Below are positions 5,614-25,028 of a DNA stretch of 29,676 nucleotides, in pieces. A program made the position numbers and the translations under genes. The stretch comes from Fibrobacteres bacterium CG2_30_45_31 (lineage in GTDB: Bacteria > Fibrobacterota > Fibrobacteria > Fibrobacterales > Fibrobacteraceae): positions 1-29,676 of the forward strand of contig MNYL01000046.1 of NCBI GenBank assembly GCA_001873075.1, written 5' to 3'. How positions within the stretch are numbered: the stretch's first letter is position 1; each line of letters opens with the position of its first letter. The notes beneath the pieces are model-generated. The model was not told the DNA's origin. It searched no databases and saw only the letters and a program-made list of their open reading frames with translations.

Positions 5614-5701
5614 AGCTCCTCCTGCATTTATTTTTAAGTCTAAAAGGATAATGCTCTTTCCCCTTAAAAGCTGAACCAGTTAAGCAACTGGTTTTTAATA
5701 T

Positions 5702-5878
5702 AAAAAGTTTCTTTGGCGTTTTCATTTCCAGTGCAGAATAGGGTGCATAAAAATTGTAAATCTTGACCCATCCGGCAATCTGCGCATGAACTGATTCAGG
5801 CGTATCCAGAGAGTTCTCGTACACGTAAGCCCGCTGGAGTACAGAAAGCGTCTTGGACTGTGTTAAATATGTCCAACT
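5702..5878 (-). pseudogene. Remnant of an IS3/IS481-type transposase (C-terminal end of the rve integrase core)
   Basis: 'KTLSVLQRAYVYENSLDTPESVHAQIAGWVKIYNFYAPYSALEMKTPKK' matches the conserved integrase-core tail (..wi..YN..RPHSAL...TP). No DDE core lies upstream, and the ORF runs into unrelated sequence. Confidence 0.6.
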
Positions 5879-6010
5879 ATTTGTCCGCACCCCCTTTTCG
5901 CATAGATTAGAAGATTGTCTTTGATTTAATTTCTTGGTCAAAATAGTACAAATTATGTTATTGTTACATTTATGGTCGCTGACATCTTTGATGAGAACCC
6001 GGGGTAGCAT

Positions 6011-8275
6011 ATGACACCGTCTTTACAAAGCCTTCTTATTTTTGTTCTATACTTGGCCATTCTTTATTCTGTCTACCATTTCGTCTTTAGGAAAAAAGGT
6101 AAGGACCTTTTTGATTTTATTCGTTTCTTTCTGATATGGATAGTGCTGATCGGGGGACTGATATGCTATTTCTTTGGGTATCGGGAACTCCACGGTTTCA
6201 ATATTTCATCTTTCCTTTTATCCCTGTATTCCACAGCGCGGTTGCTCATTCTCGGCAATGACCTGATAGAGATTGAGAAAGTCTTTGAACCCCAGAATCA
6301 TTTTTGGGAACTACATCTTGCGCTTTCACTAGTGATGGCAACCGTTGTTTTTATCTTCGCTGCTGGAATAATACAAATAGGTCTCATTATAACCCGCAAT
6401 AGACGGATGATCCGCAAATCTAGCGCAATAGGAAACAGTTTTTTCCTAGGTATGAATGAGGCTTCGCTGGCCCTAGCAAAGGACATTATCCATACAGAAG
6501 GATCTCAGCGGCTTGTTGTGTTTTTCGGGGTAGACGGTCGCATGACTTCAGAGCAATATAGGGAGGTATCCGTTTTCGGTGCGGCCGTGGTTGGTCAAGA
6601 AAGTTTACTAAACAAACTGAGACTGAAAAGCGAAGAATTTTTGCTTCAGTTCAGCGAGGCGGGAAATCGCAAGGTTGGTGGAAATTCATGCAGTAATGGA
6701 TACCTTGGAAGTTCGCAACTGCTAAACGCGCTCAGGAAAAGAAAAACGGACATATTCCTTTTGTCAGAAGACGGACACAGAAATATCCGTGATGCCAAGG
6801 CTCTGCTGAGCGAACTGAATAACAGTGACATTGGGCAACAGGTGACACTCTTTCTGAGGGCCAGCTTAACTGAACACATGGAGGAAGATCTCCATCGCCG
6901 CTTTTCCGGTAATTTAGGCATTGATGTTCATATCATTGATGATGCGGATATTTCTACGAATCAACTCGTGAGAGATCAGCCTCCTGTTGGCTTTATCCGA
7001 ATTGATACGGAGCATGCCATGGCCTTGGAAAATTTTAATGCCGTTGTCATCGGTTTTGGTTCGCGAGGTTCATCTATTCTCAGAAAGCTGATCGAATCTG
7101 GGCAGTTCATCGGTTCCCATTTCGGAGCCATTGTGATGGATCGCCATCTGGATGAGGTAACGGGTTCTTTCCGTAACAACTACCCAGGAATTTTAGACAA
7201 TTACAATGTCCGGTTCCAGGAGACTACCCTTAATGATGATATCTTCTATGACACACTCAGACAGCATCCCGACTATATGCGTTATGTCGTCATCACGCTG
7301 GATGATCCGGCTATGGGACTCCAAAAGGCCTTGGAAATAGAGAATATTGCGAACAGAATAGGAACTAAATGTCGTATTTTTGTGTATGCCGGAAACGATG
7401 ACGGCCTCGGGGAACTTTACAGGAAGGGAGAACACAGCAATGTAGAGATCTTTGGACGCAACAAAGATGTGTTTACCGGGAAAAATATAATCCGCAATGA
7501 CATTGAGAAGATGGCGCGACTAAACCATGATTTCTATATGGATCACAGCGACAAGAACTGGCAAAACAAACCTTGGCACACCCTCTCCAGAATGAAACAG
7601 ATATCCAATATTGCCTGCATGGAACACACATTGACGAAGCTCCATTTGGTTGGGCTGTCTGCGGAAGATGTACTTCGGTGTAGTTCGGAGGATGAGTTTC
7701 TTCGTCTGCTCGGAAACGAGAGACGGGAAAGTCTCGCCATCACTGAACATCTGCGCTGGAATGCCACCTATTTCATTCTCGGCTGGACCACCTGGAAATT
7801 GGATGACGCTACAGGTGATCAAACGAGTGATGAAATCAGAAAACGGCATGTCTGCCTTGTGGATTGGGAATTTTTGAATACTGTCGGAGAACGTTTCTAC
7901 GAAGTTAAGAAATACGACAGAATCATCGTTGACAAGATATATGCCCAAATCAAAAATGGATATTATCCTCATGGAAGGGAGACTGGAAAAATTGCGGCTT
8001 TGCATAATGGGAAAAGTGTCGGAAAGGATACTATCTCGATCATTAAAAAAGACTGTCTGGAATCCATCGCACAGAGTGTTCACGACACTTGGGTTGCAGG
8101 GCGCACGAAGGAAGGCTGGAAATATGGGAAGATACGTGATGAAATTAATAAGGAACATCCCTCTCTGATTCCTTATGACAGGCTCCCGGAATCTGAAAAG
8201 GATTATGACAGAAAGACTGCCATGACAACCATCCGGTGGTTGTCGGATCATCGATTTCTCCGTAGCGGGAAATGA
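6011..8275 (+). CDS. Multi-pass membrane protein with Rossmann (KTN/TrkA-N-like) domains and C-terminal RyR domain
   Basis: About 4 hydrophobic helices in aa 5-128, followed by 'RNRRMIRK'. GxGxxG Rossmann motif 'AVVIGFGSRGSSILRKL' (aa 344-360) and a degenerate earlier copy. RyR-domain signature 'SIAQSVHDTWVAGRTKEGWKYGKIRDEINKEHPSLIPYDRLPESEKDYDRKTA' (about nt 8048-8254). A weaker RyR-like repeat 'ITEHLRWNATYFILGW...KRHVCLVDWEFL' lies upstream of it. Confidence 0.7.
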   Translation: MTPSLQSLLIFVLYLAILYSVYHFVFRKKGKDLFDFIRFFLIWIVLIGGLICYFFGYRELHGFNISSFLLSLYSTARLLILGNDLIEIEKVFEPQNHFWELHLALSLVMATVVFIFAAGIIQIGLIITRNRRMIRKSSAIGNSFFLGMNEASLALAKDIIHTEGSQRLVVFFGVDGRMTSEQYREVSVFGAAVVGQESLLNKLRLKSEEFLLQFSEAGNRKVGGNSCSNGYLGSSQLLNALRKRKTDIFLLSEDGHRNIRDAKALLSELNNSDIGQQVTLFLRASLTEHMEEDLHRRFSGNLGIDVHIIDDADISTNQLVRDQPPVGFIRIDTEHAMALENFNAVVIGFGSRGSSILRKLIESGQFIGSHFGAIVMDRHLDEVTGSFRNNYPGILDNYNVRFQETTLNDDIFYDTLRQHPDYMRYVVITLDDPAMGLQKALEIENIANRIGTKCRIFVYAGNDDGLGELYRKGEHSNVEIFGRNKDVFTGKNIIRNDIEKMARLNHDFYMDHSDKNWQNKPWHTLSRMKQISNIACMEHTLTKLHLVGLSAEDVLRCSSEDEFLRLLGNERRESLAITEHLRWNATYFILGWTTWKLDDATGDQTSDEIRKRHVCLVDWEFLNTVGERFYEVKKYDRIIVDKIYAQIKNGYYPHGRETGKIAALHNGKSVGKDTISIIKKDCLESIAQSVHDTWVAGRTKEGWKYGKIRDEINKEHPSLIPYDRLPESEKDYDRKTAMTTIRWLSDHRFLRSGK

Positions 8276-8448: not shown

Positions 8449-9804
8449 ATGCCTTCAAAAGAATTCAAAGAGACATTGTGGCGGATGCTTCTTTCTGAAA
8501 TAGAAAGAGGGCATATTATTCCTATCGTGGGACCGGAACTTCTGATGGTGGAAGTGGATGGGAAATCGATACTTCTTTATGACTGGCTTGCCAAGCAGCT
8601 TGCTGAAAGCCTTGAGATTGATTTGATAAACGGAACGGGTAAACATGATTTGAGTGAAATCATATATAAATACCGATTCCTGCCAAGGGGTAAACCAGCA
8701 GATCCCTATAATGAAGTTTTTGATATTTTGGATGGGATGTCCTTTCCAGTCCCAGAACCACTTCGCATTCTCGCGAGCATAGAACCACTCCGTATTTTCC
8801 TTACAACCACGGTGGATCGTTTGTTGGAAAAAGCGTTGGAAGAAAGCCGGGGCCAAGTGTCCAGCTTGTCTTTTTCCTGTTCGGGACCCGTGGAAGACAT
8901 TGCGTCTGAAGAGAAAAAGTCGGTTGTTTTTCATATGTTCGGAAAGGCAGATCCCGTGCCTACGTTGCCCACGTTTGTGCTGACAGAAGATGATCTTTTG
9001 AAATTCAGCTACAACTGGAATGATCCTGATCGGCGGCCTCCACGTCTTTCTAGTATTTTGCAGAATCGTCAGACGTGTCTTATGATGCTCGGATGCAGTT
9101 ATGAAAATTGGCTTGCCCGTTTTTTCCTTTATGGTCTGCGCCAAGGCTCTCTTTTTGAGTACATACCGCCTAGGGAACTGATAGCAGATGATCATAGTGT
9201 TCTGGATCCTGATTTTTTGTGCTTTTTGTCTCGTTGTAATGCCGATCTTTATCCTAACGGGGATGCCGTTGCCTTTGTCCGGGAACTTGGAAAGCGCTGG
9301 AGGGAGAAGCATCCGCAAGGGTTCCAAACTCAGTCTCTTTCTGCAACGAAAAAAGACCCTGAGAAAAAAGCTGTGTTTCTGAGTTACGCCAGCGAAGACA
9401 AGACCATCGCCAGGCAAACCCGGGATGCTCTGGAAGCTGAAGGCGTTGATGTCTGGTTCGATGAGAAAAAGCTCGAATCCGGAGACCAATATGAAGGTGT
9501 GATTGCGCAGAATATCCAGGATGCATCATTTTTCGTTCCCATAGTGACTCCTAATACTCTTATCCAACAACGTCGTTTTTTTCATTTTGAGTGGAACAAG
9601 GCCATTGAGGAGGCTAAATTCCGGCCAGTCGGAATCCCTTTCATTTTGCCGTTGGTTTCCGGCGATATTGATGTAGACAACATGCTCATTCCCGAGGCAT
9701 TCAGAAAAGTTCACTGGAGCCGTTTCTGTAGCCCGGACAACTTGGGTTTTTTTGTGTCGGAATGCCGTCAGAAAGTTCGCAATCTGAATCGGCTTTCCCA
9801 TTAG
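8449..9804 (+). CDS. SIR2_2-like domain (probably degenerate) fused to a C-terminal TIR domain
   Basis: N-domain has the SIR2_2 layout: 'IIPIVGPELL' in place of GAGxS, 'IFLTTTVDRLLEKAL' in place of TTNYD, 'VVFHMFGKADP...FVLTEDDLLKF' (KLHG-type His) and 'CLMMLGCSYENW'. TIR (aa 307-430, about nt 9367-9738): 'KAVFLSYASEDKTIARQTRDALEAEGVDVWFDEKKLESGDQY...ASFFVPIVTPN...FFHFEWNKAIEE'. Confidence 0.8.
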   Translation: MPSKEFKETLWRMLLSEIERGHIIPIVGPELLMVEVDGKSILLYDWLAKQLAESLEIDLINGTGKHDLSEIIYKYRFLPRGKPADPYNEVFDILDGMSFPVPEPLRILASIEPLRIFLTTTVDRLLEKALEESRGQVSSLSFSCSGPVEDIASEEKKSVVFHMFGKADPVPTLPTFVLTEDDLLKFSYNWNDPDRRPPRLSSILQNRQTCLMMLGCSYENWLARFFLYGLRQGSLFEYIPPRELIADDHSVLDPDFLCFLSRCNADLYPNGDAVAFVRELGKRWREKHPQGFQTQSLSATKKDPEKKAVFLSYASEDKTIARQTRDALEAEGVDVWFDEKKLESGDQYEGVIAQNIQDASFFVPIVTPNTLIQQRRFFHFEWNKAIEEAKFRPVGIPFILPLVSGDIDVDNMLIPEAFRKVHWSRFCSPDNLGFFVSECRQKVRNLNRLSH

Positions 9805-9813
9805 GATGGAGCC

Positions 9814-12800
9814 ATGATCAATCAGGAATTATCTGCTATTCGTCCCTGGCCGGGACTCGCTTCTTATACAGTTCATGACGGGGCTCTCTTTCATGGACGT
9901 GATGCCGAAATTCAGGAAATTGTGGAACGACTGTCAAACGCCACGTTTGTGTGTCTCTACGGTCCTTCGGGGGTCGGGAAGTCATCCATTCTCCAGGCTG
10001 GGGTGGGAACGGCCGTTCGCGAAACGGACGGGTTCCCCGTGTTTATCCGGCTCAATCACAGTCAGGAGGCTTCGTCCCTGTATGTTCAGGTTTCTCAGGC
10101 CCTTCTGACAGCGGCAAGGGAAGCCGGCTTGGACACGGAAGTTCTTGCTCCCGCTTTTGATTTCTTCCCGGAGGAAACTCTCTGGGAACTGCTGCATCGC
10201 CATGTATTCTGGACGTCTAGAAATTACCAGGTTCGGCCGATATTGATTTTCGATCAGTTCGAAGAACTGTTCACGTTGTCCGGTTCCACTGAAAAAATAC
10301 GGTTTTGTATTCAGGAATTGGGAGATCTTGCGGAAAATGCGCCACCGCAAAAACTTCAATCCAAGCTGCGGGAAACGGGAACATGTCTTTCTTATGCTTC
10401 TGAAAAGGCGGATTACCGAATTTTAATCACTCTACGTGAAGATTTTCTTGCACAGTTTGAAATGGCAACCCAAGGTATTCCTGCATTTCGGCGGAATCGC
10501 ATTGCTTTGCGGCCTCTGAGTGGTACCCAAGCCTTGAACATCGTGAAGAAGTCCGGTGATGCCATCGTGGATGCTGAGACAGCGGAAGTTATCGTGGATG
10601 CGGTCACTTCTATGGGAGAAGAACTGAAGGGAATGATCCTTCCACTGGAAGAACGGATAGTGGAACCGTCTCTTCTTTCGCTTCTCTGTTGCGAGCTGAA
10701 TGAACAGCGCATTGCCGCTGGGACGGAGCGCATTACAGTGGATCAGGTGAAAAAGCAAGGGAAAGACATCCTTCGCAACTTTTATCATTCCAGCATGTCA
10801 TCGGTATCTTCGGCAACAGCAGAATTTCTTGAGGACCGGCTTCTCACTGAATCTGGCTATCGCAATGCGGTTGCCTTGGAGGATCTTTCCGCTGCCGGGA
10901 TTCCTCGTAGTGAACTGGACTATCTTGTGAATCAACGCCTCCTGCACATGGAGGAACGACAGGGGCTTCCCTGGGTGGAATTCAGCCACGACATCCTCAC
11001 CAAGGTGGCGATGGACAGCCGTAATGAACGGCGATCAAAAAAAACGCTTGAAAAAGAACGGCAGAATTTGCTGCTTCTGGAGAAGGAACGTCACAGACAG
11101 AAAAAACGGATGCTCATACTGCAGGTCGTCCTGATTGCCGTACTGGCTCTCATGGTCGGAATTTCCTGGACCGTATATGATTTTTATTTCAGAGTCCATC
11201 GGGATAACTTCGCCTATGTCGTCAAACGCAATGGATTCTTTGAAGGACGGGGAGCACTCTCCCAGGACCAGATGCGCCATCGCTGGGTCCATTACGAACT
11301 TTCCCGGCGAGGAAGGTATGTCTTTCCATTCAAAGCAAAGCCCTATGAAAAAATGCGCGCATTGGATCCGGACGGAAACCTGACGGTAAATCACGGAATA
11401 AGAACCTATCTGACCAGTTCCTGGGATGAGAAGGACTCTGCCACCTATAACAGAGACAACTGGAAAAAACTGAAAACCGTCTGCCAGTGGCGTCTGGTGA
11501 CCGATGCGAACGGCCTTCCCGCGAGCGAACAAGGGCTGGACAAGAAAGGATCCGTCATCTTCAATTTCGTCTATGTGAGCCATGCCGATTCCGGTTCCTT
11601 CAGAACAGCAATATGCCGATATTTTGATGGCTACGGGCTGCCTTTCCTTCAGACCAGATCAGGAGCCGAGATACTCAGAATCACTTACGGGAAGAACGGA
11701 TATGAACAACTCATTGAAACGTTTGACCATGCAGGGAATCCCTGCCCCAACCAGTGGGGCTCCTATGCTTTGAGCTCCAAATACAATGCGCAGGGATTTG
11801 AAACGGAAGAGATGTCTTTGAATGCTTTTGGCGAACCAATGATTGATAGTGCCGGAAACTGCGGGCAGCGAATAACTTATGATGATAAAGGCAATGTGTT
11901 GCGGTGGGAAAGTCTTGACACACAAAAGCAGCTCCGCAATGTAAAAGATGGCTTTGCCATCGTAAAATGGCGCTATGACCCCTATGGAAACCAAATTGAA
12001 GCCCGTTATTATGATAAGGACACAAATGCCATAGTGACTGATGGCTCTCATAAAACCACTTGTCGCTATGAAAAGGGCCGAAACGTGGAAGTCCATTTTT
12101 TCCTCGCCGATGGGAAATCCCCGGCGGATGATTCTTCTAAAGACTTTTGGGGTCATGTTCTGTCCCGTTTTGATTCCAAAGGAAATCTTCTGCAACGTGA
12201 ATGGCTGGATGCAAAGGGCCGGATCAGAAGCAGACTTCAGTATACTTACGATACCGCAGACATAGTCACATGGGAGTTGAATGAAGACTTGAAACAGGGA
12301 CAGCTACGCAGAACCTATGAATATAAAGTCTGGAGGAATGCTGCGGATAAAGACACCCTGACATCGTGGATGAATTATGACAGTGCTAGTGCACAGCAAA
12401 GTGTCACATTGGAGCATCAGTCCTGGGATGCGGCGGGAAACGAAATTGAGAGATCCTGGTTCAATGGGAAAAAACAACCGATTCTGCATCAGGAGGCATC
12501 TGATGAAATTTCCTATCACCGCATGGAAATCCGCATCGAACCGGGCGATACGGCGACATGGACAACCACTTATTATGGACTGGATGAAAAGCCTGTAAAG
12601 GGAGCCGAGATCCAAGTTCAGAAAAAAGCGGATAGCCTCGTTGTTGAAAAGCAATTCTTTACGGATTCGCTAGTTTTTCTCAGAGGATGGCAGTGGGCCT
12701 ATGATGAGCATCGCCGCATCCATTCGGAAACCATGGTGGGAGTTTCCGGGAAACCCATCTGGGGAAAAAACTATCAGACGATAGAAACGGCCTATCCTCT

Positions 12801-13305
12801 TGAAGGAGATTTCTCCTATGTTATGTATGCCGGCTTGACAGAACTCGGCGAACCCGGCCTGATAAAAGAGGACACGAATGCCTATCATTTATGGAACAAG
12901 GTCGAGTCTACCTATTACGCTCTAGATGGCCAAAAACTGGATACCAACGGCAAGGTGGCGTACTATAAATCGCTCTCCTTCGTGGTACAGTTGAATCTTC
13001 TAAAATATCGCTGCATCGAGGATTCGCTTGGCATAGAGGATGGGGATATTCTTGTCGCGTATGGCGACTGGAAATATAAGCCCGGATCTGATTTCAGGCC
13101 ATTAGAATTTGCATGGGAAAAGCTCAAAAATTCATCTAAGTCCATTGTGGTGGCTCGGCTCGTTCCATCTGAAAAACGGATGATATTGAAAAAATTTGAG
13201 TTGCCCCCCGGATTGAGTGGTTTGAGGCGTCGTTCAATACCATACACCCCCCAGCAATATAAACGTCTGATGGACGCCCTTGACGGAGAGAAGAAAAAGA
13301 ATTGA
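9814..13305 (+). CDS. STAND-type P-loop NTPase (nSTAND-like) - TM helix - YD/RHS-like repeat array - PDZ-like C-terminus
   Basis: N-terminus 'RPWPGLASYTVHDGALFHGRDAEIQEIVERL'. Walker A 'GPSGVGKSS' (nt 9961-9984). Walker B 'ILIFDQFEELF' (about 10240-10266). 'ILITLREDF' and 'EPSLLSLLCCELN' are typical of the PYxGLxxF..FFGRE STAND clade. TM 'MLILQVVLIAVLALMVGISWTVY' (11110-11178), preceded by an R/K-rich stretch. YD-like repeats such as 'ITYDDKGNVLRWESLD', 'WRYDPYGNQIEARYYDKD', 'RFDSKGNLLQREWLDAKG' and 'WDAAGNEIERSWF' (about 11356-12964). The C-terminal 'GIEDGDILVAYGDW...PPGLSGL' is PDZ-like. Confidence 0.8.
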   Translation: MINQELSAIRPWPGLASYTVHDGALFHGRDAEIQEIVERLSNATFVCLYGPSGVGKSSILQAGVGTAVRETDGFPVFIRLNHSQEASSLYVQVSQALLTAAREAGLDTEVLAPAFDFFPEETLWELLHRHVFWTSRNYQVRPILIFDQFEELFTLSGSTEKIRFCIQELGDLAENAPPQKLQSKLRETGTCLSYASEKADYRILITLREDFLAQFEMATQGIPAFRRNRIALRPLSGTQALNIVKKSGDAIVDAETAEVIVDAVTSMGEELKGMILPLEERIVEPSLLSLLCCELNEQRIAAGTERITVDQVKKQGKDILRNFYHSSMSSVSSATAEFLEDRLLTESGYRNAVALEDLSAAGIPRSELDYLVNQRLLHMEERQGLPWVEFSHDILTKVAMDSRNERRSKKTLEKERQNLLLLEKERHRQKKRMLILQVVLIAVLALMVGISWTVYDFYFRVHRDNFAYVVKRNGFFEGRGALSQDQMRHRWVHYELSRRGRYVFPFKAKPYEKMRALDPDGNLTVNHGIRTYLTSSWDEKDSATYNRDNWKKLKTVCQWRLVTDANGLPASEQGLDKKGSVIFNFVYVSHADSGSFRTAICRYFDGYGLPFLQTRSGAEILRITYGKNGYEQLIETFDHAGNPCPNQWGSYALSSKYNAQGFETEEMSLNAFGEPMIDSAGNCGQRITYDDKGNVLRWESLDTQKQLRNVKDGFAIVKWRYDPYGNQIEARYYDKDTNAIVTDGSHKTTCRYEKGRNVEVHFFLADGKSPADDSSKDFWGHVLSRFDSKGNLLQREWLDAKGRIRSRLQYTYDTADIVTWELNEDLKQGQLRRTYEYKVWRNAADKDTLTSWMNYDSASAQQSVTLEHQSWDAAGNEIERSWFNGKKQPILHQEASDEISYHRMEIRIEPGDTATWTTTYYGLDEKPVKGAEIQVQKKADSLVVEKQFFTDSLVFLRGWQWAYDEHRRIHSETMVGVSGKPIWGKNYQTIETAYPLEGDFSYVMYAGLTELGEPGLIKEDTNAYHLWNKVESTYYALDGQKLDTNGKVAYYKSLSFVVQLNLLKYRCIEDSLGIEDGDILVAYGDWKYKPGSDFRPLEFAWEKLKNSSKSIVVARLVPSEKRMILKKFELPPGLSGLRRRSIPYTPQQYKRLMDALDGEKKKN

Positions 13306-13365
13306 TCCTGAATCGTGTGGCAGACTCCGCCATCAAACAGTTGATTATTAAAATTATGAGGATAT

Positions 13366-16300
13366 ATGTCAGAACAGAATCAATATGACGCATTTATTAG
13401 TTACTCCCGGAAAGATATAGAAGTTGCAGCGTGGTTCCAGAAAGAGATGGAAAAACTTCGCGTTCCAAAAGCTTTGCCTTATCCTGCCGGGATGGAACCT
13501 TTGCCCAGAAAATTGCGCCTCTTCCGTGACCAAACGGATCTGGGAGTTCGCTCCAATAGTTTTTTTGAAGGCCTTAGTGCGAATCTGGCAAAATCCCGCG
13601 ATCTCATTCTTCTTTGCTCTCCTCATGTGCTCCAAAACAATTCGGAGGGGCTGAACTATATTGATTGGGAAATTCGGGAGTTCATTCGAATCCATGGAGT
13701 GGAATATGCGAAGAACCATATTCTCCCAGTAATTATTTATGGCAAGATTCAATCTGGTGATTCACGGGAAGCCTGCATTCCCACAGCTTTAAATGATCTC
13801 GGTGTTGATTTCCGCCAGCGCAATCTTCCGGTACTTGGAAGTCCTGAAATTTCAAGGGTTTCTAAAAACGATAAAGAACATGTCTTACTTCAGTGCTTGT
13901 CTTATTTAGCAAGGGTAGAGACGAATATTGTTGACAATCGTTTCCAGAAGGAGCGCCGCCGCACAATGCAACGGTGGCTTTTGTTAGCTGGTGCCGTGAT
14001 ACTTGCTTTATCTGGATTAGCAATTTGGGCTCTTGTCGAAAAGGATAAAACCAGCGAAACACTTTCTGAATCCTATTTCCAGGAAGCGTCCCGACTGATT
14101 GATGAGCACCAGGCAGGCTTGGCCTTGGCCTATCTCGCCGCCAGTATGGACAGTAAAAACAATAATGCCGCCTATCAACGTTTTTCTGGACTTATGAAAA
14201 ATCGATCCTGGCTGGTTCAGTTGGATACTCTTGCTTCATCACCACATTCAGGAATTCATATAGCTTGGTCCAATCGTCAGGAAAAAGAGGCTGTTTTTTC
14301 TTTAGAGGATTCTGCACAAGGAAAAGGGACTCTTTCCATTTATCAGTTAGACCCGTCTAGACCACCTGTTTCCATTTCAGTAAAAAATTTTCGTACCGGA
14401 ATTTTTTCTCCAGATGGTCAAAGCCTGCTTACTTTACATGGAGTCGCGCCGGAGCAGATTTGTAAACGCTGGAACGTCTCCACCGGAGAATTCAGCGATT
14501 CACTCCTTTTGTCCGACGGCTCTGTACCTGTTTTTTTGTCCTCTTCTGCTAGTTATGCTCTGCTTTTAACAAGCGATCAGAAGACAATCCGCCTAGTGTC
14601 TATGAAAGATGGAAGCATTCGATTTGAGCAAACTGTAACAAGTGGCTGGGAGTGGAATAAATTTGCTTTTGATGAAAAAGAAAAGATCTTGGCTTTTGGT
14701 GTTAAACGTGAGCTTAATTTTCAGCATTTAAATGAAATGTCGGCATCAGAATTTGCTTTCCAGACGATTGACATTGCATCCGGTTCTATTTTGGCTCAGA
14801 TTCATGGGGCTGGTATTTTATCGGATTGGGTTTTGTCTCCTGATGGGGTACATTTAGCCTATAGTTATTCCACGGGACGTCCCGATGACTGGCTTCTGGT
14901 TAATCAGGATCTGTCAAGCGGGAAGCCATCCTGGACGCTTCCTTTGAAGGCCTGCCAGCGTTTACTGTTTAATCCGGATGGCATTCACTTAGCTGCAGAT
15001 CTTGGAACGTTTGGCGTTGAGATCCATAATGTCTATAGAGATTCGGAATCAAAGATCCATATCGATCTTTCCTCGCCTGTAAAAAACTGGACGTTTAGCC
15101 ATGATGGTCGCCGTTTGGCAATTACAACGGAGCAAGCTTCGCTTTGCGTTTTTAATGTCCGTGATGGAAGCGAAGCTGTGGAAAGGCGCCTCTTGAATAC
15201 GGATGTTTATGGAATTCAGTTTTCGAAGACAAATCGTATTTTGACAGTGAATACAGGGAATGGGGAAAAAAGCTTTGCTTTGCAAGTCAGTCCCGTTGGC
15301 GTTCAGACTATTATGTCTAAATGGTCTCCCAGCGTTTTGATGAATGTATTTGTGGAAAAAAACTCATCTGCCTTCGCGTTTATTCTTGGAAGTTACAGCT
15401 CGGGAACCATTCTGGAAATGCATGGAATGGTCGATAGTTTTCCAGATTCCATTCGACAATTAAAGCTTTCGGAAACTCCGAATTGCGGTGCTTTTTCTCC
15501 TGACGGTCGATTTTTGGTTCTGGGATCGGGTAAAAAAACAGATGAAAATGGAACCGGGCAGTTGGATGTTTATAAAATTTCAGAGGGAACACTATGGCAA
15601 CCTCAAAAATGGGAAAAATGGGTCAGTGAAAAGGCTCCGTTTGCGGTTACGCAAATTTCCTTTAGTCCAGACGGGAAACGAATTCTGGTAAATTCCAATA
15701 CCTTGCAGAAAGCCGCACAAAAGGCTCTAGTCTACGATATGCAGGCATTGGCAAAGCCTGTCTTTTCACTGAACCATGGAGGAACAGTCTCTCAGGCTGC
15801 TTTTACTCCGGACGGGAAATATGTGATTACAGCAGGTTCGGACAGAATGCTTAAAGGCTGGGACATCGCGTCTGGAAACATGCTCTGGAAGCAGGAATTG
15901 GAATCTTTTCCATCGGCACTGGCAATTTCCAGCCAGGGAAAAATTGCGTGCGGGATGCGGCTTCTCCATGCAAATGGGCGCGTTCAGATTTTCGCAGAAA
16001 ATGGAAAACCGGAATGGTCTTCCAGGGTTTTGCGTAATGGAGTCAATCAGTTAGACTTCAACGGAAAAGGGTCTTTATTGGGAGTCGCCTTTTTCAATCG
16101 TGAGGCTTTGATTTTTGATGTTTCCAGCGGTCGTATTCGCTCGCAAGATCTCGTTCAGGAAGGGGATATCACCAGTATGCGTTTCTGGTCCGATTCCGAT
16201 CAGGACATCTTATGCATTGGGGGGAAAACTGAAAACAATTTAGGTTTTGTGGAATATTGGGATCCCGCCACCTCAAAAAAGATCGGGGATATCACCAGAC

Positions 16301-17961
16301 ACTCGGACAAAGTTCAGGGAATAAACGTTTCCACAAAGGAAGGAATTCTATCTTGGTCGAATGCTCTTCTAGTTGCTCCAAGGCCTCTTCAGGTTTCAAC
16401 AGAAGGAGATGACAATTATGATCAACTTGCTGGCGAATTGGGGGGATGGACGCTCAATCAATGGAATGTTCCAGAAGAATTTGAAAGGACTAAGAACTTA
16501 AGTTCACCGAAAGGACCCCTGACTCGAATGCTTTGTTGGCTGCAGGATACCAGTGAAACGCGAGATTTGTATACGGGAAGCAAGGATCCTTTGAAATCCT
16601 ATCTGAGTCAGTTGGTGCAGGGTAGTGAAAGAAACATTGAGCGTGCACTGGATATTCGCCCGGACTGCGTTCCGGCGTGGAAAAACTACTGGTTTTCACA
16701 GGCTCTGGATGTCGCCGAGAAACGATTTATGGGCTCAGTCACAGGAAAAAGCCGAGATGAATGGTTGAAGCGACGTCTGCAATGGGCCGGTTTAACTCCC
16801 GCCCAGAAACGCGCCTATCTGCAGGCAGATCCCGAAGGAATGCGCTTAGCAGATTTTCAGACCCGCGAGCTTTATACGAATCATCCAAACTCTGCATCAG
16901 CTTGGATGGAACGCGGAATTTTTCTGAAGCTTGCAAACGAAAATGTACAGGCTAAAGAGGTCTTGGAAAATGCCGCCAAACTGGATCCGAAGAATTCCGA
17001 GATAAAAAACGAACTGGTCGGACTCGAAACATCCCCTCAGGCCATCTCGTCTCTCCTTGCACAATCGCTACCCATGCTACAGAATGACGATTCTGCGACA
17101 GTGGAACGCATCTGCAATTATGCAGAAAAATTTTTGCCAAACTGGGTGATGGCAAACGGTGCTCTTCATACCGGGGAAAAACTGGATGAAATTCTTGCTT
17201 TGCTCAGGCAGAAGGTTAAGAGTTCTATCTCTTTTGACGACCAATTGAAGATTCAAATATTGGCCGAGAAAATGACTTCATTATTCTTCTATTTACCCGA
17301 AGGGCCCAAGTTATCCAATACCTTTAACCAAGGACTTCTGGATTTATTTGATCATAGCTCTCTCTCGGTTGCTTCCGAAAGCAGAAGGGCTATTCAATCA
17401 ATGCTTGCCTTCAATATGTTGTTGCAGAACCGAACGACTGAAAGTCTGAAGATATATGATGAGATTCATGCAGAATATCCTCTTGAAAAAGCCATTCTCT
17501 CTACAGGACGGGCTTACGCTCTTAGTTTGCAGGGAAACAATGCTCAAGCTGTTGGAATGCTCCGTGCCATCGTTTCCAATGGCGGCGACTTCACAGCGAT
17601 ACTGGCGCAGTCTATTCTTACGGATTTTGCCATTTTTCATTATCGTGGAATTGAACTGCCTTGCGAAAAGGAATTAAGAGAAGAAATCCTGAAGATGGCG
17701 CAACCTTCCCTGTCAGGAGGTTTAAATGTGGTGCAAGTCATTCCTCGGGGGCAGTGCGCAAAAATTGGAATTAAAGTCGGAGATCGCCTCACTTGGTATG
17801 ATGGTTATCCTGTGACGGACTTGCAGCAATTCATCTATGCAAGGCAAATGGATAAATTTTGGGAAAAAACAAATTCCCGGGAAATGCGTATCCTGCGTAA
17901 CGGGGAAATTTTTAAATTTACTGTCAATCCAGGCCTTGTGGGCTTAGGTTTAACACAGTAA
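13366..17961 (+). CDS. TIR - TM helix - tandem beta-propellers (WD40/PD40-like SPDG blades) - TPR-like helical region - PDZ
   Basis: TIR 'YDAFISYSRKDIEVAAWFQKEM...LRLFRDQTDLGV...LILLCSPHVL...YIDWEIREF' (about 13384-13845). TM 'WLLLAGAVILALSGLAIWALV' (13975-14034) after 'KERRRTMQR'. About 12-14 blades: 'FSPDGQSLL', 'LSPDGVHLA', 'FNPDGIHLA', 'FSHDGRRLA', 'FSPDGRFLV', 'FSPDGKRIL', 'FTPDGKYVITAGSDRMLKGWD' (about 14233-16380). Helical TPR-like region at about 16633-17655. PDZ 'VVQVIPRGQCAKIGIKVGDRLTWYDGYPV...NPGLVGLGL' (about 17713-17958). Confidence 0.85.
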   Translation: MSEQNQYDAFISYSRKDIEVAAWFQKEMEKLRVPKALPYPAGMEPLPRKLRLFRDQTDLGVRSNSFFEGLSANLAKSRDLILLCSPHVLQNNSEGLNYIDWEIREFIRIHGVEYAKNHILPVIIYGKIQSGDSREACIPTALNDLGVDFRQRNLPVLGSPEISRVSKNDKEHVLLQCLSYLARVETNIVDNRFQKERRRTMQRWLLLAGAVILALSGLAIWALVEKDKTSETLSESYFQEASRLIDEHQAGLALAYLAASMDSKNNNAAYQRFSGLMKNRSWLVQLDTLASSPHSGIHIAWSNRQEKEAVFSLEDSAQGKGTLSIYQLDPSRPPVSISVKNFRTGIFSPDGQSLLTLHGVAPEQICKRWNVSTGEFSDSLLLSDGSVPVFLSSSASYALLLTSDQKTIRLVSMKDGSIRFEQTVTSGWEWNKFAFDEKEKILAFGVKRELNFQHLNEMSASEFAFQTIDIASGSILAQIHGAGILSDWVLSPDGVHLAYSYSTGRPDDWLLVNQDLSSGKPSWTLPLKACQRLLFNPDGIHLAADLGTFGVEIHNVYRDSESKIHIDLSSPVKNWTFSHDGRRLAITTEQASLCVFNVRDGSEAVERRLLNTDVYGIQFSKTNRILTVNTGNGEKSFALQVSPVGVQTIMSKWSPSVLMNVFVEKNSSAFAFILGSYSSGTILEMHGMVDSFPDSIRQLKLSETPNCGAFSPDGRFLVLGSGKKTDENGTGQLDVYKISEGTLWQPQKWEKWVSEKAPFAVTQISFSPDGKRILVNSNTLQKAAQKALVYDMQALAKPVFSLNHGGTVSQAAFTPDGKYVITAGSDRMLKGWDIASGNMLWKQELESFPSALAISSQGKIACGMRLLHANGRVQIFAENGKPEWSSRVLRNGVNQLDFNGKGSLLGVAFFNREALIFDVSSGRIRSQDLVQEGDITSMRFWSDSDQDILCIGGKTENNLGFVEYWDPATSKKIGDITRHSDKVQGINVSTKEGILSWSNALLVAPRPLQVSTEGDDNYDQLAGELGGWTLNQWNVPEEFERTKNLSSPKGPLTRMLCWLQDTSETRDLYTGSKDPLKSYLSQLVQGSERNIERALDIRPDCVPAWKNYWFSQALDVAEKRFMGSVTGKSRDEWLKRRLQWAGLTPAQKRAYLQADPEGMRLADFQTRELYTNHPNSASAWMERGIFLKLANENVQAKEVLENAAKLDPKNSEIKNELVGLETSPQAISSLLAQSLPMLQNDDSATVERICNYAEKFLPNWVMANGALHTGEKLDEILALLRQKVKSSISFDDQLKIQILAEKMTSLFFYLPEGPKLSNTFNQGLLDLFDHSSLSVASESRRAIQSMLAFNMLLQNRTTESLKIYDEIHAEYPLEKAILSTGRAYALSLQGNNAQAVGMLRAIVSNGGDFTAILAQSILTDFAIFHYRGIELPCEKELREEILKMAQPSLSGGLNVVQVIPRGQCAKIGIKVGDRLTWYDGYPVTDLQQFIYARQMDKFWEKTNSREMRILRNGEIFKFTVNPGLVGLGLTQ

Positions 17962-17969
17962 AGTAAAAA

Positions 17970-18363
17970 GAAAAGCTCGTGTCTCATAGAAAGAGTGATA
18001 TGAAAAAGGCACTTCCCAAAGCAAAACTGGAGAAAGCCTGTTTCTTACGCGCTCAAAAGGTGGGATGAACTCTGCCTCTATTGCAAGGATGGCGAACTTC
18101 AGATTGACAACAGCATCGTGGAAAGAAGCATCCGTCCTGTTGCTGTGGGGCGCAAGAACTGGTTTTTCGCAGAAAGCGAGGATGGTGCGGACTGGGCTGC
18201 CGCATTTTATTCTCTTATTGAGACCTGCAAACTAGACAAAGTCAACCCCGCTGAATATTTGAGCAAAGTATTCATATATCTCCCAGACTATGAAGACGAG
18301 GACATGGCTGGATGGGCCACTTTGCTCCCTGATGCCTATACCATGAAACTCGGAATAGAGTAA
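17970..18363 (+). pseudogene. 3' remnant of an IS66-family transposase (TnpC), 5'-truncated and frameshifted
   Basis: 'YALKRWDELCLYCKDGELQIDNSIVERSIRPVAVGRKNWFFAESEDGADWAAAFYSLIETCKLDKVNPAEYL' is the conserved IS66 C-terminal block. The upstream 'ALPKAKLEKA' lies in another frame (frameshift near 18040). The remnant starts directly after the stop of the 13366-17961 gene. Confidence 0.8.
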
Positions 18364-18798: not shown

Positions 18799-20181
18799 AT
18801 GAAAAAAATCATTTTATTGACATCAGACGGTCCGCAGGGCCACGATCTGGCAAAGCAGCTGGCGATATTGGCTCATCAGCAACAATTTGAGCTCACGCCC
18901 ATTTTCGGTTTTACGCTGACTGATTTCTTTTCGGGATTCATGAAGAAACGATTACAGATCATCGACATTTCCATGGACGAAGATCCGCTAGTCTATGACA
19001 AGGTTCATCCCATCCATACGCCCAATCATTTGTATGTCAGCAGGACCCACACTCCACTGAATTTCCGTCCCATGGTCATTCCCATCCGGCATGGAGAAGA
19101 ACTGATCAACGCCTTCCCGGAATTCGGAGAAAAGAATTCCAATGATGAGCTCAGCTTCTGGCTAGACCGGAAGCTTCCTGAATTCGTTCACCAAAGGCAG
19201 TCTTTTGTACCAATTATTGGACGTTTTCTGGACATGAAAAGAATTTCTGAAGAAAGAAAAAATGAGATTCGCAAGGAGGGCTCCATTTTTCTCAGCTATC
19301 GCAGTTCCGAAAATCAAAGCATCGCGACGTTGGCAAGTCAGATTGAATCAAAATATGGAAAGCGATGCCGATTTTTCGCACCCGGGGTCATCTCGCATGA
19401 GGCCATGAGCCGGATGCGTCGCTGGAATCTGCTTTCTCTTCTCGATCGGTATATACTGTCCGCAGACCAGATATGGATCTGTCTGAGCGAGGACTATTTC
19501 TATTCGTGGTGGACGTTCGGTGAATTCCTCATGGCTGTACATCGGCAGACAGCAAACGCCATCGGTCATAAACCTCTTCTCAAGAAATACCGGAACGGAG
19601 CTCTAGAAGAATGGCAGGAAACAGAATGGCCAGAGATCACGGAAGCGGAACACAGGCGTATCTCCAGATATTTTGCCTTCTGCGATAGTTTCCAGATGGG
19701 GCCGGAGGCCTTTATCTCCCACGAAGACATCCAGAACCTGAAGCTTAAATTTGCGGAAGGCTACTATCGTGATGATGTCTGGAAAAAAGACTTCTGGCTT
19801 AATCCCATAGTGGAATGCCCTGTATGCCGGAAACGTTCAGGCCCTTACAACAAAAGACCTATAGAAGAATTTCTCTGGCACGGTCAACAAAAGGAAGAGA
19901 ATCCCGCCCAACAAGGAATCGTCTACCGTGGCAACGGCATCATGGAGATCGACTATGCAGCCATGCCATCATTTCTGGATCAGGGAATCACTTGCCGGTG
20001 TGGTCATACTATCACACTGAAGAAAGGCCCCATGCAATACCTCCACGTTTTTCTTCCGCCCAAAAGTCAAGTTCCTTTTTCCGCAGCTCGGGAACTGGCC
20101 CGTAAATGGGAATTCCCGGAAGCATCGGTCATTGGAAACAATCTGATCGCGATACAGAGTTTTTTAATAAATGAAGACTAA
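18799..20181 (+). CDS. TIR-like domain protein with unknown N-domain and C-terminal Cys4-type zinc ribbon
   Basis: Preferred start is the ATG at 18799, with GGGAGAG 8 nt upstream. The ORF-track start at 18634 has no SD. TIR-like segment 'SIFLSYRSSENQSIATLASQIESKYGKRCRFFAP...QIWICLSEDYFYSWWTFGEFLMAV' (about 19279-19548). 'CPVC'...'CRCGH' at about 19816-20007. Confidence 0.6.
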   Translation: MKKIILLTSDGPQGHDLAKQLAILAHQQQFELTPIFGFTLTDFFSGFMKKRLQIIDISMDEDPLVYDKVHPIHTPNHLYVSRTHTPLNFRPMVIPIRHGEELINAFPEFGEKNSNDELSFWLDRKLPEFVHQRQSFVPIIGRFLDMKRISEERKNEIRKEGSIFLSYRSSENQSIATLASQIESKYGKRCRFFAPGVISHEAMSRMRRWNLLSLLDRYILSADQIWICLSEDYFYSWWTFGEFLMAVHRQTANAIGHKPLLKKYRNGALEEWQETEWPEITEAEHRRISRYFAFCDSFQMGPEAFISHEDIQNLKLKFAEGYYRDDVWKKDFWLNPIVECPVCRKRSGPYNKRPIEEFLWHGQQKEENPAQQGIVYRGNGIMEIDYAAMPSFLDQGITCRCGHTITLKKGPMQYLHVFLPPKSQVPFSAARELARKWEFPEASVIGNNLIAIQSFLINED

Positions 20182-20209
20182 CCGTAGATTTTTTAACAGG
20201 AGATAGAAG

Positions 20210-20827: not shown

Positions 20828-20855
20828 ACAACCCACAGCACAGAGGATACAGAAA

Positions 20856-23530: not shown

Positions 23531-23549
23531 TCTAAGCCTGCAAAAAAAA

Positions 23550-25024: not shown

Positions 25025-25028
25025 TTTC

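Follow-up and report, generated by a model that had tools for sequence, protein, structure and literature searches.

A SIR2-like–TIR protein paired with a membrane STAND NTPase, and a probable second TIR/SLOG module beside it, in a Fibrobacterota genome

Three consecutive genes (g1, g2 and g3) of Fibrobacteres bacterium CG2_30_45_31 were analysed within a window of 29,676 nucleotides (contig MNYL01000046.1). Judging from conserved gene order, g1, a SIR2-like plus TIR protein, and g2, a membrane STAND NTPase, constitute a functional unit, here called module A: a widespread, uncharacterised bacterial pair of immune type. On the same kind of evidence, g3 appears to belong to a downstream multi-TIR/SLOG module (module B) and is no conserved partner of g1-g2. 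Two adjacent TIR-based conflict modules within a defence island are, on balance, the best explanation of the interval as a whole. The surroundings in the window are defence-island-like, with an extra ThsB, AbiEii and a 5-hmdU DNA kinase cluster. The features are as follows.

6011-8275, + strand: g0, with 3-4 N-terminal TM helices, a Rossmann/RCK (TrkA_N-like) region and an RyR domain (Pfam, hydropathy)
8449-9804, + strand: g1, ORF of 451 aa
8449-9318, + strand: g1 SIR2-like domain (aa ~1-290), SIR2_2 fold
9373-9726, + strand: g1 TIR domain (aa 309-426), TIR_2 63.5 bits against a cut-off of 28
9814-13305, + strand: g2, ORF of 1163 aa
9844-11001, + strand: g2 nSTAND1 NTPase module (aa 11-396), PF20703 E 8e-31
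11110-11166, + strand: g2 TM helix (aa 433-451), hydropathy 2.74
11194-12918, + strand: g2 YD/RHS-like beta-hairpin array (aa 461-1035), AF2 secondary structure and Foldseek
12943-13299, + strand: g2 C-terminal alpha/beta domain (aa 1044-1162), AF2 model, possibly PDZ-like
13366-17961, + strand: g3, ORF of 1531 aa, with TIR, one TM helix, WD40 propellers, TPR-like region and PDZ (Pfam, hydropathy)
18004-18363, + strand: C-terminal remnant of an IS66-family transposase (DDE_Tnp_IS66 E 1.6e-18, IS66_C E 4e-9)
18799-20181, + strand: module B 460-aa protein with a weak TIR-like core (TIR_2 E 0.009) and a Cys-rich C-terminus; the listed ORF start is 18634, the likely start 18799
20210-20827, + strand: module B ThsB-type TIR protein (ThsB_TIR E 3e-15, PADLOC ThsB E 2.6e-13)
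20856-22856, + strand: module B TIR + SLOG (LD_cluster2) protein (LD_cluster2 E 2.6e-59, TIR_2 E 2.4e-9)

The g1-g2 pair

The first-pass annotation had described a three-protein machine encoded by three genes of the same strand, each with its own SD site. The ORFs and their gaps (9 nt between g1 and g2, 60 nt between g2 and g3) are real, and an SD-like motif precedes each start (AGGAGGG for g1, GGATGGAG for g2 and GAGGA for g3). Nearly all of its domain calls hold as well, and the observation as a whole is confirmed; of the machine itself the g1+g2 unit stands, while g3 is not a conserved member. Promoter and terminator scans of the locus gave scores no higher than shuffled sequence, and no terminator is evident in the 60 nt between g2 and g3.

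In about 78 of 81 loci a SIR2-like-TIR gene is immediately followed by a co-directional nSTAND1 gene, and the stop codon of the first often overlaps the start codon of the second; the synteny also extends to further contigs. The phyla include Acidobacteriota, Pseudomonadota, Verrucomicrobiota, Bacteroidota and Actinomycetota, among others. Such adjacency across many phyla points to a conserved two-gene cassette, and in most pair loci the two genes stand alone. When the flanking ORFs were clustered all-vs-all, the sole other cluster found at many loci consisted of antisense ORFs overlapping g1/g2. Since these are taken as spurious, the clustering revealed no further conserved neighbour of the pair. 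No shared adaptor domain linking g1 to g2 was detected. Searches with PADLOC and known defence HMMs matched no named system.

The g1 family is uniform in length (440-480 aa; 589 clusters at 50% identity, E<=1e-30). As first proposed, the protein combines a SIR2_2 domain (aa 116-230, E 1.5e-10, over the Pfam cut-off) with a TIR_2 domain (E 3e-17). The AF2 model (pLDDT 88) agrees, its SIR2-like fold having its best Foldseek matches in the SIR2 domains of ThsA, KomC, Avs5 and DSR2. A profile-to-PDB alignment with ThsA (6LHX/8BTO/7UXT) puts T121 of g1 at the position of ThsA N112 and F164 at that of H152, the ThsA motifs TTNYD and KMHG corresponding to TTTVD and HMFG. Among 62 sequences T121 is near-invariant, and G28, D123 and G165 are invariant. 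The SIR2-like domain is probably catalytically dead. The idea that SIR2 and TIR both act as effectors is thus not borne out: with both SIR2 catalytic residues replaced, g1 is probably no dual effector.

In the TIR domain, F378, E381 and W382 are invariant in the same 62 sequences and lie in helix alphaC (a helix at aa 377-389 in the AF2 model). This invariance and position mark E381 as the putative catalytic Glu; the HMMER alignment to PdTIR, one of the PDB matches together with AbTIR, SPARTA TIR-APAZ and SARM1, places the catalytic Glu differently. Because the SIR2 catalytic Asn/His are gone and Glu381 is invariant, the TIR domain is the likely enzyme of g1. No TM helix was found in g1, which would be cytoplasmic and, putatively, would serve the pair as its effector or generate its signal.

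The partner g2 is, as originally described, a STAND NTPase with no fused effector and one TM helix. Its nSTAND1 module scores 108 bits against a Pfam cut-off of 27.1 and has a PWPGL motif in its N-terminal part. Walker A (G53, G55, K56, S58) and Walker B (D147, Q148, F149, E150, E151) are invariant across 60 homologues, and Foldseek retrieves Apaf-1, Dark, NLRP and ORC/Cdc6. The TM helix spans aa 433-451 by hydropathy and aa 434-459 in the AF2 model. Since its N-side flank is K/R-rich, the NTPase is predicted to lie in the cytoplasm and the last 700 aa of the protein outside it. Membrane anchoring had been singled out as a peculiarity of this locus; a TM helix follows the NTPase directly in about 108 of the 120 best g2 homologues, whatever their sensor type. 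Nor is a YD array in place of the usual sensor peculiar, as had been thought: the close STAND relatives carry YD, WD40, TPR or FGE sensors, so that YD is only one type among ectodomains that replace each other. The variability of these sensors and the TM helix directly after the NTPase indicate that the sensors probably face outward.

The array matches Pfam RHS_repeat at just E 0.085. The approximately 540 aa of YD/RHS-like repeats first noticed there are nevertheless supported by Foldseek and by g2 homologues with PF05593. Compared with Rhs/Tc cores, the array gives a Foldseek E of 1e-19 and a TM-score below 0.1; the modelled array forms an open sheet instead of the closed cocoon of Rhs proteins. 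This putative ectodomain sensor diverges faster than the NTPase, with 32-33% against 50-53% identity to the nearest homologues. The PDZ-like end that had been proposed lacks a Pfam match of its own. PDZ_6 in the homologues P0007 and P0011 and a weak similarity to the g3 PDZ (E 0.002) make this domain possibly PDZ-like.

Flanking genes: g0, g3 and module B

An RyR-domain gene upstream of g1, here g0, had been overlooked. Its RyR domain (Pfam E 1.1e-20) comprises C-terminal Repeat12-type repeats and its Rossmann/RCK region has GFGSRG at aa 348; a PDB search retrieves Repeat12 of animal RyR and 3NRT, an RyR-like protein of B. thetaiotaomicron. Six other loci have homologues bearing TrkA_N / Slo-like RCK beside YD-type pairs, in differing gene orders (L001, L002, L053, L079, the P0003 contig and L062, the last with two such genes), and in L062 a Macro-TIR gene is also found upstream of the pair. 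The RyR/RCK genes beside YD-type pairs, along with this Macro-TIR gene, suggest ADPR-ligand signalling in the YD subclade. Phage RyR-domain proteins were recently found to bind or cleave 2'/3'cADPR, and the RyR-domain proteins include glycosidases by which cADPR isomers are degraded (PMC13232231). We regard g0 as a candidate third component, restricted to certain lineages, for receiving or degrading a signal derived from ADPR. It is absent from most loci and hence not essential to the core mechanism.

In g3, a single TM helix (aa 206-224, hydropathy), WD40/PD40 propellers and TPR_14 (E 2e-7) are supported. TIR_2 falls short of its cut-off (25.6 bits against 28), being detected in the homologue P0123, and PDZ_2 is weak (E 2e-3). 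Of the 12-14 SPDG-type blades first estimated, about 10 are clear as S/N-x-D-G motifs, a regular-expression count and not a structural one.

A search of 5.8 billion proteins yielded only two full-length relatives of g3, and a metagenome scan one more, partial. In all three of these other loci, which are perhaps closely related, g3 relatives adjoin TIR-SLOG (+ThsB-TIR) genes, and in none of the three do they lie beside SIR2-TIR/nSTAND1. Synteny in other genomes, the check proposed at first for all three genes, is seen for g1-g2 and, in the loci covered, not for g3. The TIR-SLOG protein of the window is 71-72% identical to the product of the gene directly upstream of the g3 orthologues in L082 and L085, and an LD_cluster2 gene also precedes the orthologue in L083. 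The ThsB-type TIR is 60-61% identical to the neighbours in L082 and L085, and the 460-aa protein is 70% identical to a 470-aa ORF between ThsB and TIR-SLOG in L085. The IS66 remnant that lies between g3 and the other module B genes is likely a rearrangement scar.

Possible mechanism and competing readings

In the two-module reading, g2 would hold its NTPase in the cytoplasm and its fast-evolving YD/PDZ-like ectodomain in the periplasm. A ligand acting on the ectodomain, or an event in the envelope there, would permit the NTPase modules to oligomerise in an NTP-dependent manner, as other STAND/NLR proteins do, with subsequent recruitment of the separate g1 protein. The SIR2-like domain would most likely serve as an NAD/ADPR-binding or filament-forming scaffold uniting the TIR domains, which, through Glu381, would cleave NAD+ to cause NAD+ depletion and/or yield a cADPR-type nucleotide. 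Within the YD subclade of Bacteroidota/Fibrobacterota, to which the window belongs, the candidate for receiving or degrading this nucleotide would be the adjacent g0. Module B would group the g3 receptor by orthology with the 460-aa TIR-like, ThsB-TIR and TIR-SLOG genes, from which an IS66 insertion or rearrangement may have parted it in this genome.

Alternatively, g1, g2 and g3 might form one three-protein machine on a single transcript, with the receptors g2 and g3 feeding a common TIR assembly, for example via heterotypic g3-g1 TIR-TIR contacts nucleated by the STAND protein. The shared strand, short gap and lack of an evident terminator would fit, as would the predicted N-in single-pass layout of both receptors with weakly similar PDZ-like ends. 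Non-orthologous TIR-TM-sensor genes directly follow the pair in L087 (which has the closest g2 relatives), L057 and the P0002 contig. That of L057 is 29% identical in its N-terminus to g3 aa 6-235, and the source data of Kaur et al. include 'TIR+nSTAND1 -> TIR+TM+BetaPropeller'. Given the gap, the missing terminator and these genes, cooperation of g3 with module A is possible. However, such a downstream gene occurs in only about 4 of 86 pair loci, true g3 orthologues, in the three other loci, are always with TIR-SLOG and never with the pair, and the pair is self-sufficient in most lineages, which makes the three-protein version unlikely.

Two further readings concern the output and role of the pair. 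Avs, SPARTA and CBASS TIR effectors work via NAD+ depletion, and the pair could be a plain Avs-type abortive infection system of this kind, devoid of a second messenger; in that case g0 would be a neighbour with no link to the pair or, in keeping with the cADPR-degrading glycosidases among RyR-domain proteins, a safety valve destroying stray cADPR. The prevalence of two-gene loci favours this, but RyR/RCK membrane proteins recur beside YD-type pairs in varied gene orders, and L062 has its Macro-TIR gene; this reading is a tentative possibility. A role other than anti-phage defence, as an envelope-stress, kin-recognition or interbacterial-conflict sensor whose periplasmic YD/PDZ region would sense exposed C-termini or incoming toxins and elicit dormancy or death, seems rather doubtful. 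The g2 sensor is predicted to be extracytoplasmic, its PDZ-like end recalls DegS/RseP logic, and genes near the nearest relatives encode M48 peptidase, PrsW protease, trypsin and serpin. Kaur et al. tie nSTAND1 systems to multicellular or social bacteria. Against this stands the density of phage-defence-type genes in the window.

Relation to known systems

Among the nearest known systems are the nSTAND1-centred NTP-dependent conflict systems of Kaur, Burroughs, Iyer and Aravind (eLife 2020, 2021), whose description is computational only. They have the same NTPase clade (PF20703) and share the logic of sensor repeats, a STAND switch and a TIR-type effector, sometimes in a neighbouring gene. The 2021 source data contain the string 'nSTAND1+TM' 412 times and also 'TIR+DrHyd -> nSTAND1+FGS/BetaPropeller' neighbourhoods, whose 'TIR+DrHyd' proteins may be of the g1 family. 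As far as the parts of that paper covered here go, the pair architecture is already on record, solely in supplementary tables. A term search of the main text, as available, returned no discussion of the g1-g2 pair and no mention of catalytic-residue loss. The tables, to the extent covered, have no RyR partner and no 'SIR2+TIR', 'nSTAND1+TM+RHS' or 'nSTAND1+YD' label; their sole RHS-labelled nSTAND1 entry is TIR-fused with no TM annotated.

The antiviral Avs/AVAST and bNACHT proteins, to which the pair is similar, combine a STAND NTPase and a variable C-terminal sensor with an effector that targets NAD+; the Avs5 SIR2 filament structures match the SIR2-like fold of g1. Avs is one cytosolic polypeptide with an N-terminal fused effector that senses phage proteins in the cytoplasm, whereas the pair has a separate effector and a STAND protein that spans the membrane, with its sensor predicted to lie outside. 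PADLOC gave no Avs/NLR match at the locus.

In type I Thoeris (ThsB TIR plus ThsA SIR2-SLOG), the ThsA SIR2 is the closest to that of g1 in sequence and structure. A TIR domain is likewise present, and module B holds ThsB-type TIRs and a SLOG-domain protein. Unlike Thoeris, g1 carries SIR2-like and TIR domains on one chain, has lost the catalytic Asn/His and has no SLOG; the presumed sensor is a STAND receptor instead of a free ThsB; and in module B SLOG is fused to TIR, not SIR2.

Two likenesses are analogies only. As in Toll-like receptors, g3, L087_651 and L057_740 combine a repeat ectodomain, one TM helix and a cytoplasmic TIR; the ectodomains are without homology and the likeness is of layout alone. 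The genuine RyR Repeat12-type domain of g0, whose phage homologues bind cADPR isomers, recalls cADPR-ryanodine receptor signalling, but is a small module and no homologue of the channel. Finally, the g2 array has local beta-hairpin repeat structure in common with Rhs / Tc-toxin YD shells. In g2 we found neither an Rhs core nor an aspartyl-protease plug nor a toxin at the C-terminus, the low global TM-score indicates an open array and, unlike those shells, this one is joined via a TM helix to a cytoplasmic NTPase.

The SIR2-like-TIR and STAND gene pair

The locus holds a widespread two-gene cassette, a transmembrane STAND NTPase and a TIR protein with an apparently dead SIR2-like domain, which in this lineage is accompanied by an RyR/RCK accessory. 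It sits beside a separate multi-TIR/SLOG module that owns the third of the following genes.

8449-9804, +, gene 1 (AUK31_01655), ORF of 451 aa
9814-13305, +, gene 2 (AUK31_01660), ORF of 1163 aa
13366-17961, +, gene 3 (AUK31_01665), ORF of 1531 aa

The intergenic gaps are 9 nt (genes 1/2) and 60 nt (genes 2/3), and an SD-like motif precedes every start. The first-pass annotation had described three co-directional genes in just these terms, and its observation is therefore real. A scan for sigma-70 promoters and terminators gave counts no better than shuffled sequences and is uninformative on operon boundaries; Fibrobacterota promoters may differ. The proposal that the three products form one machine survives in part only: genes 1 and 2 are a unit, whereas the relatives of gene 3 accompany TIR-SLOG genes.

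Synteny was scanned with an alignment of gene 2 homologues as query, taking one genome per species and scoring ORFs with the domains of the window, which gave 80 loci. In about 78 of 81 loci the gene directly before nSTAND1, and on its strand, encodes a SIR2-like-TIR protein, often with overlapping stop and start codons. These loci span Acidobacteriota, Gamma- and Betaproteobacteria, Opitutaceae, Bacteroidota, Chlorobiales, Actinomycetota and Thermodesulfobacteriota. The pair is also present on metagenomic contigs with the closest gene 2 homologues and on a Paraburkholderia caribensis replicon. Against plasmids, gene 1 had one match, a 2.55-Mb Paraburkholderia replicon that carries the STAND gene as well. 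One of the three exceptions is a contig end (L065); the other two (L025, 8936-9772, -; L074, 1035-1895, -) have a divergent SIR2-like-only gene, with no TIR match, upstream of nSTAND1. They represent a variant whose TIR is absent or encoded elsewhere. All-vs-all clustering of flanking ORFs revealed no further widely conserved neighbour. The synteny of the pair, together with this lack of other conserved neighbours, indicates that the core system consists of two genes.

A cluster of ORFs from 31 loci was considered as a third component and rejected; these ORFs are antisense, overlap genes 1 and 2 and are taken as spurious frames. The cassette is tandemly duplicated in a Holophagales locus (L061, 6729-18160), where two SIR2-like-TIR genes and two nSTAND1-WD40 genes are adjacent. 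The YD part is an ORF separate from the STAND gene in three loci (L053, L062 and L079).

The first-pass reading of gene 1 as a SIR2_2-like domain plus TIR stands as far as the domains go, since both exceed the curated Pfam cut-offs: SIR2_2 (PF13289) at aa 116-230 with 41.7 bits against 24.5, and TIR_2 at aa 309-426 with 63.5 bits against 28. The AF2 model is confident (pLDDT 88), and its closest Foldseek neighbours are the SIR2 domains of ThsA, KomC, Avs5 and DSR2 (E 1e-12 to 1e-8), several of which were deposited as helical or filament assemblies. It is SIR2 as an effector that probably does not hold. A 12-sequence profile of the N-terminal half of gene 1, aligned to ThsA (6LHX), matches 'TTNYD' of ThsA with 'TTTVD' and 'KMHG' with 'HMFG', so that the catalytic Asn and His are replaced (N112 by T121, H152 by F164). 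Mutations at N112 and H152 are known to abolish the NADase activity of ThsA. These replacements suggest that the SIR2-like domain of gene 1 is probably not an NADase. T121 is near-invariant across the family, in which G28, D123 and G165 never vary.

Helix alphaC of the TIR domain holds three invariant residues, F378, E381 and W382. E381, which is invariant among 62 sequences and falls within an AF2 helix (aa 377-389), is likely to be the catalytic Glu, with an ambiguous register relative to solved TIRs; the HMMER alignment to PdTIR shifts it. At 50% identity the gene 1 family forms 589 clusters (E<=1e-30, 1.84 billion representatives searched), and its members have uniform lengths of 440-480 aa.

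Gene 2 is, as first described, a STAND protein devoid of an N-terminal effector domain: the nSTAND1 match (PF20703, 108.4 bits against a cut-off of 27.1) covers aa 11-396, and the effector is the separate gene 1. The Walker A (G53, G55, K56, S58) and Walker B (D147, Q148, F149, E150, E151) residues are invariant. In the AF2 model (pLDDT 88) the NTPase module, which resembles Apaf-1, Dark, NLRPs and ORC/Cdc6 in Foldseek, leads into a long helix and then a TM helix at aa 434-459; a beta-hairpin array occupies aa 461-1035, and a small alpha/beta domain aa 1044-1162. The model upholds the single TM helix and YD-like repeats of the first-pass annotation, but the PDZ-like end drew no PDZ match in the Pfam search. 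The same search gave RHS_repeat at E 0.085 only and did not find PF03527. The array matches Rhs/Tc YD shells locally (E 1e-19) at a TM-score below 0.1, and in the model it looks like an open sheet, not a cocoon. An Rhs-type toxin cocoon was considered and rejected, given the very low global TM-score and the lack of a core or toxin domain.

K/R residues are very abundant just N-terminal to the TM helix. Since the NTPase needs cytoplasmic NTP, this charge distribution predicts that the C-terminal 700 aa are periplasmic, i.e. that the sensor is extracytoplasmic. A hydrophobic helix occurs at aa ~415-480 in about 108 of the 120 best gene 2 homologues, whatever their C-terminus (YD, WD40, TPR, FGE-sulfatase or Cache). 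Judged from these homologues, the TM helix after the NTPase is a property of the clade and not of gene 2 alone. The ectodomain diverges faster than the NTPase, with 32-33% as against 50-53% identity to the nearest homologues.

The upstream RyR/RCK protein and its surroundings

The first-pass annotation had not counted the gene upstream of the pair in its system. This gene and other features of the window outside the two modules are as follows.

354-1169, -, Fib_succ_major domain protein, which fits a Fibrobacterota origin
5519-6010, -, weak integrase-core remnant (rve_3, E 0.005), just upstream of gene 0
6011-8275, +, gene 0, membrane protein with 3-4 TM helices, a Rossmann GFGSRG motif and C-terminal RyR repeats
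22907-26741, -, cluster of Nmad2 (E 6e-69), ThsB_TIR (23550-24017), a thymidylate-synthase-like protein and a 5-hmdU DNA kinase (HMUDK_hel, E 2e-102, plus thymidylate kinase)
28157-29080, -, AbiEii nucleotidyltransferase toxin (E 9e-46)

The RyR match of gene 0 (PF02026) scores 74 bits against a cut-off of 27.4 (Pfam E 1e-20), and the repeats strongly match animal RyR Repeat12 and the B. thetaiotaomicron protein 3NRT. Homologues match TrkA_N and Slo-like RCK. Relatives of gene 0 adjoin YD-type pairs in variable positions: adjacent upstream in L001, downstream in L002, as two adjacent copies in L062, and also in L053, L079 and on the contig of the gene 2 homologue P0003. The proteobacterial and acidobacterial pair loci lack them. 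In L062 a Macro-TIR gene lies just upstream of the pair. Phage proteins with the RyR domain (PF02026) bind or hydrolyse 2'cADPR and 3'cADPR (2026 preprint, PMC13232231); the RyDEP family, with a catalytic His/Asp dyad, has a 2'/3'cADPR binding or hydrolysing activity known only from that preprint. By analogy with the phage proteins, and given its relatives beside YD-type pairs and the Macro-TIR gene of L062, gene 0 is a plausible candidate for receiving or degrading a nucleotide made by a TIR in the YD subclade.

The full order in this Bacteroidales locus (L062, 7059-21003) is Macro-TIR, SIR2-like-TIR, nSTAND1, a separate 1192-aa YD protein and two RyR/RCK membrane proteins. In the window, the rve_3 remnant may mark the island border; no flanking tRNA genes were found. 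The AbiEii gene is further evidence for a defence island. The cluster at 22907-26741 has the look of a phage-type thymidine hypermodification pathway, carried in this case by a bacterial MAG contig beside TIR genes.

Gene 3 and the TIR/SLOG module

The description of gene 3 is upheld for one TM helix (aa 206-224), WD40 propellers and TPR, while its TIR_2 match (25.6 bits) falls below the cut-off of 28 and its PDZ is weak. Among 5.8 billion proteins there are only two full-length relatives (49% and 34% identity), and a metagenome scan added a single locus with a partial relative (54%). All three adjoin a TIR + SLOG (LD_cluster2) gene, and no SIR2-TIR or nSTAND1 gene was found near any of them, which speaks against gene 3 as a member of the machine formed by genes 1 and 2.

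Gene orders at the loci of gene 3 relatives
L082: TIR (190 aa), ThsB (211 aa), TIR-SLOG (665 aa), gene 3 orthologue
L085: as L082, with ThsB and TIR-SLOG parted by a 470-aa gene
L083: SLOG, gene 3 orthologue

Downstream of gene 3 in the window
18004-18363, +, C-terminal fragment of an IS66-family transposase (DDE_Tnp_IS66, E 1.6e-18; IS66_C, E 4e-9)
18799-20181, +, 460-aa protein with weak TIR and Cys-rich tail, 70% identical to the 470-aa product of L085
20210-20827, +, ThsB-TIR (ThsB_TIR, E 3e-15), 60-61% identical to orthologues
20856-22856, +, TIR-SLOG (LD_cluster2), 71-72% identical to orthologues

Because the orthologues of these partners lie beside its relatives, gene 3 is assigned by orthology to a second module, comprising itself and 18799-22856, with up to four TIR-type proteins (gene 3, the 460-aa protein, ThsB-TIR and TIR-SLOG). 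The module is conserved with shuffled order in L082 and L085, and partly in L083; PADLOC gave no system match for it. The IS66 fragment, inside the 840-nt space that parts gene 3 from its orthologous partners, is a probable scar of a rearrangement that altered the gene order relative to L082 and L085.

Non-orthologous proteins with a TIR, one TM helix and an ectodomain directly follow the pair in three places.

L087, 651 aa, TIR_2 (E 2e-14), TM at aa 153-171
L057, 740 aa, TIR-TM-TPR, N-terminus 29% identical to gene 3 aa 6-235
Contig of the gene 2 homologue P0002, 838 aa, TIR_2

Such genes follow the pair in about 4 of 86 loci, including several of the nearest gene 2 relatives. On balance gene 3 is rather unlikely to work with the pair. 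Lying side by side in one orientation within a defence island is insufficient to define one system, and gene 3 is better placed in the rearranged TIR/SLOG module.

The C-terminal ends of genes 2 and 3 are similar and PDZ-like (12943-13299, …PPGLSGL; 17713-17925, …NPGLVGLGL; BLASTP E 0.002), and a periplasmic peptide ligand common to them is conceivable. In L087 (~7700-7950) the TIR-TM protein has GDIVVSRKG near its C-terminus, PDZ-like by eye with no Pfam support. Genes of the envelope-protease type lie next to the nearest relatives of the pair (P0002 and P0003 contigs; L087, 387-1801; L089, 4477-7190). Peptidase_M48 and a small zinc-ribbon protein occur on the P0002 contig and in L087, the zinc-ribbon protein only, beside a truncated unannotated gene, on the P0003 contig; a PrsW protease with a trypsin-like protease, and a serpin, are further such neighbours. 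This may amount to a proteolysis theme tied to the periplasmic PDZ-like ends.

Proposed mechanism and relation to known systems

Beyond domain identification, we infer a mechanism in which the gene 2 ectodomain would detect an extracytoplasmic cue and the NTP-bound STAND modules would oligomerise. Gene 1 would then be recruited, with its dead SIR2-like domain as a scaffold or ligand-binding module, and its clustered TIR domains would cleave NAD+. The output would be NAD+ depletion, joined, where gene 0 or Macro proteins accompany the pair, probably by a cADPR-type signal. It is quite improbable, in our estimate, that the pair, here with gene 0, forms a trans-envelope innate immune pathway, in which a membrane-spanning NLR-like receptor, triggered from outside the cytoplasm, activates a TIR enzyme on a dead-sirtuin scaffold and a cADPR-type product gates gene 0. 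The trigger could be damage to the envelope, the arrival of toxins, or adsorption or ejection by a phage. If true, such a pathway would be a bacterial counterpart, perhaps the evolutionary source, of Toll-like receptor topology and of the animal cADPR-ryanodine receptor link.

To our knowledge, every bacterial STAND/NLR defence characterised so far detects its trigger in the cytoplasm and carries a fused effector. In the present clade the sensor is predicted to lie outside the membrane and the effector is a separate protein. With about 600 gene 1 clusters at 50% identity, the clade extends over many phyla, including the cultured carriers Paraburkholderia caribensis MBA4, Mycolicibacterium porcinum and Bacteroides ilei. 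If the pair is functional, bacterial NLR-type immunity would reach cell-envelope surveillance. The pair also raises the questions of what a catalytically dead sirtuin domain does beside a TIR and whether cellular proteins with an RyR domain read nucleotides made by TIRs, like their relatives in phages.

In line with the first-pass annotation, no named system was recognised at the locus. PADLOC and NCBIfam scans of all genes gave generic TIR/ThsB fragments only, with no system-level match; for gene 2, PADLOC gave no Avs/NLR model, only the P-loop fragments mad3 and AriA (E about 0.01-0.03). No papers turned up in a literature search on 'SIR2-TIR' or 'TIR-SIR2', and the accessible portions of recent STAND and Thoeris surveys do not cover the pair. 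The 2025 Thoeris survey explicitly removed STAND-linked TIRs and, in its available text, does not name RyR among Thoeris effectors ('RyR' occurs zero times). Kaur et al. 2021 defined nSTAND1 and stated in general that TIR/DRHyd effectors accompany STAND-sensor proteins. In their source data 'nSTAND1+TM' occurs 412 times and 'TIR+DrHyd' 92 times, the latter in some cases immediately before an nSTAND1 gene; 'TIR+TM+BetaPropeller' neighbours are listed too. Going by those entries, the broad kind, and probably the pair itself, is already catalogued computationally, though not described, named or experimentally tested; the accessible parts of Kaur et al. 2021 make no mention of the SIR2-like domain and its lost catalytic residues, of a universal TM helix or of the RyR link.

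Thoeris couples a ThsB-type TIR to an effector with a signal-binding domain (SLOG, Macro), and the pair has neither; the module of gene 3 has a ThsB_TIR (E 3e-15) and a TIR-SLOG protein but no PADLOC ThsA match. Defence SIR2 NADases (ThsA, DSR1/2, Avs5, SIR2-HerA) share the SIR2_2 fold with gene 1, which lacks the catalytic Asn/His. Rhs/YD polymorphic toxins have a closed YD shell, an Rhs core and a C-terminal toxin, a layout that gene 2 does not share. A periplasmic sensor on a STAND protein has been predicted before, for a NACHT-CLec protein. In Avs/AVAST, the effector is fused N-terminally to the STAND protein and a cytoplasmic sensor binds a phage protein, whereas gene 2 has its effector in the separate gene 1 and a sensor that its TM helix and charge distribution predict to be extracytoplasmic.
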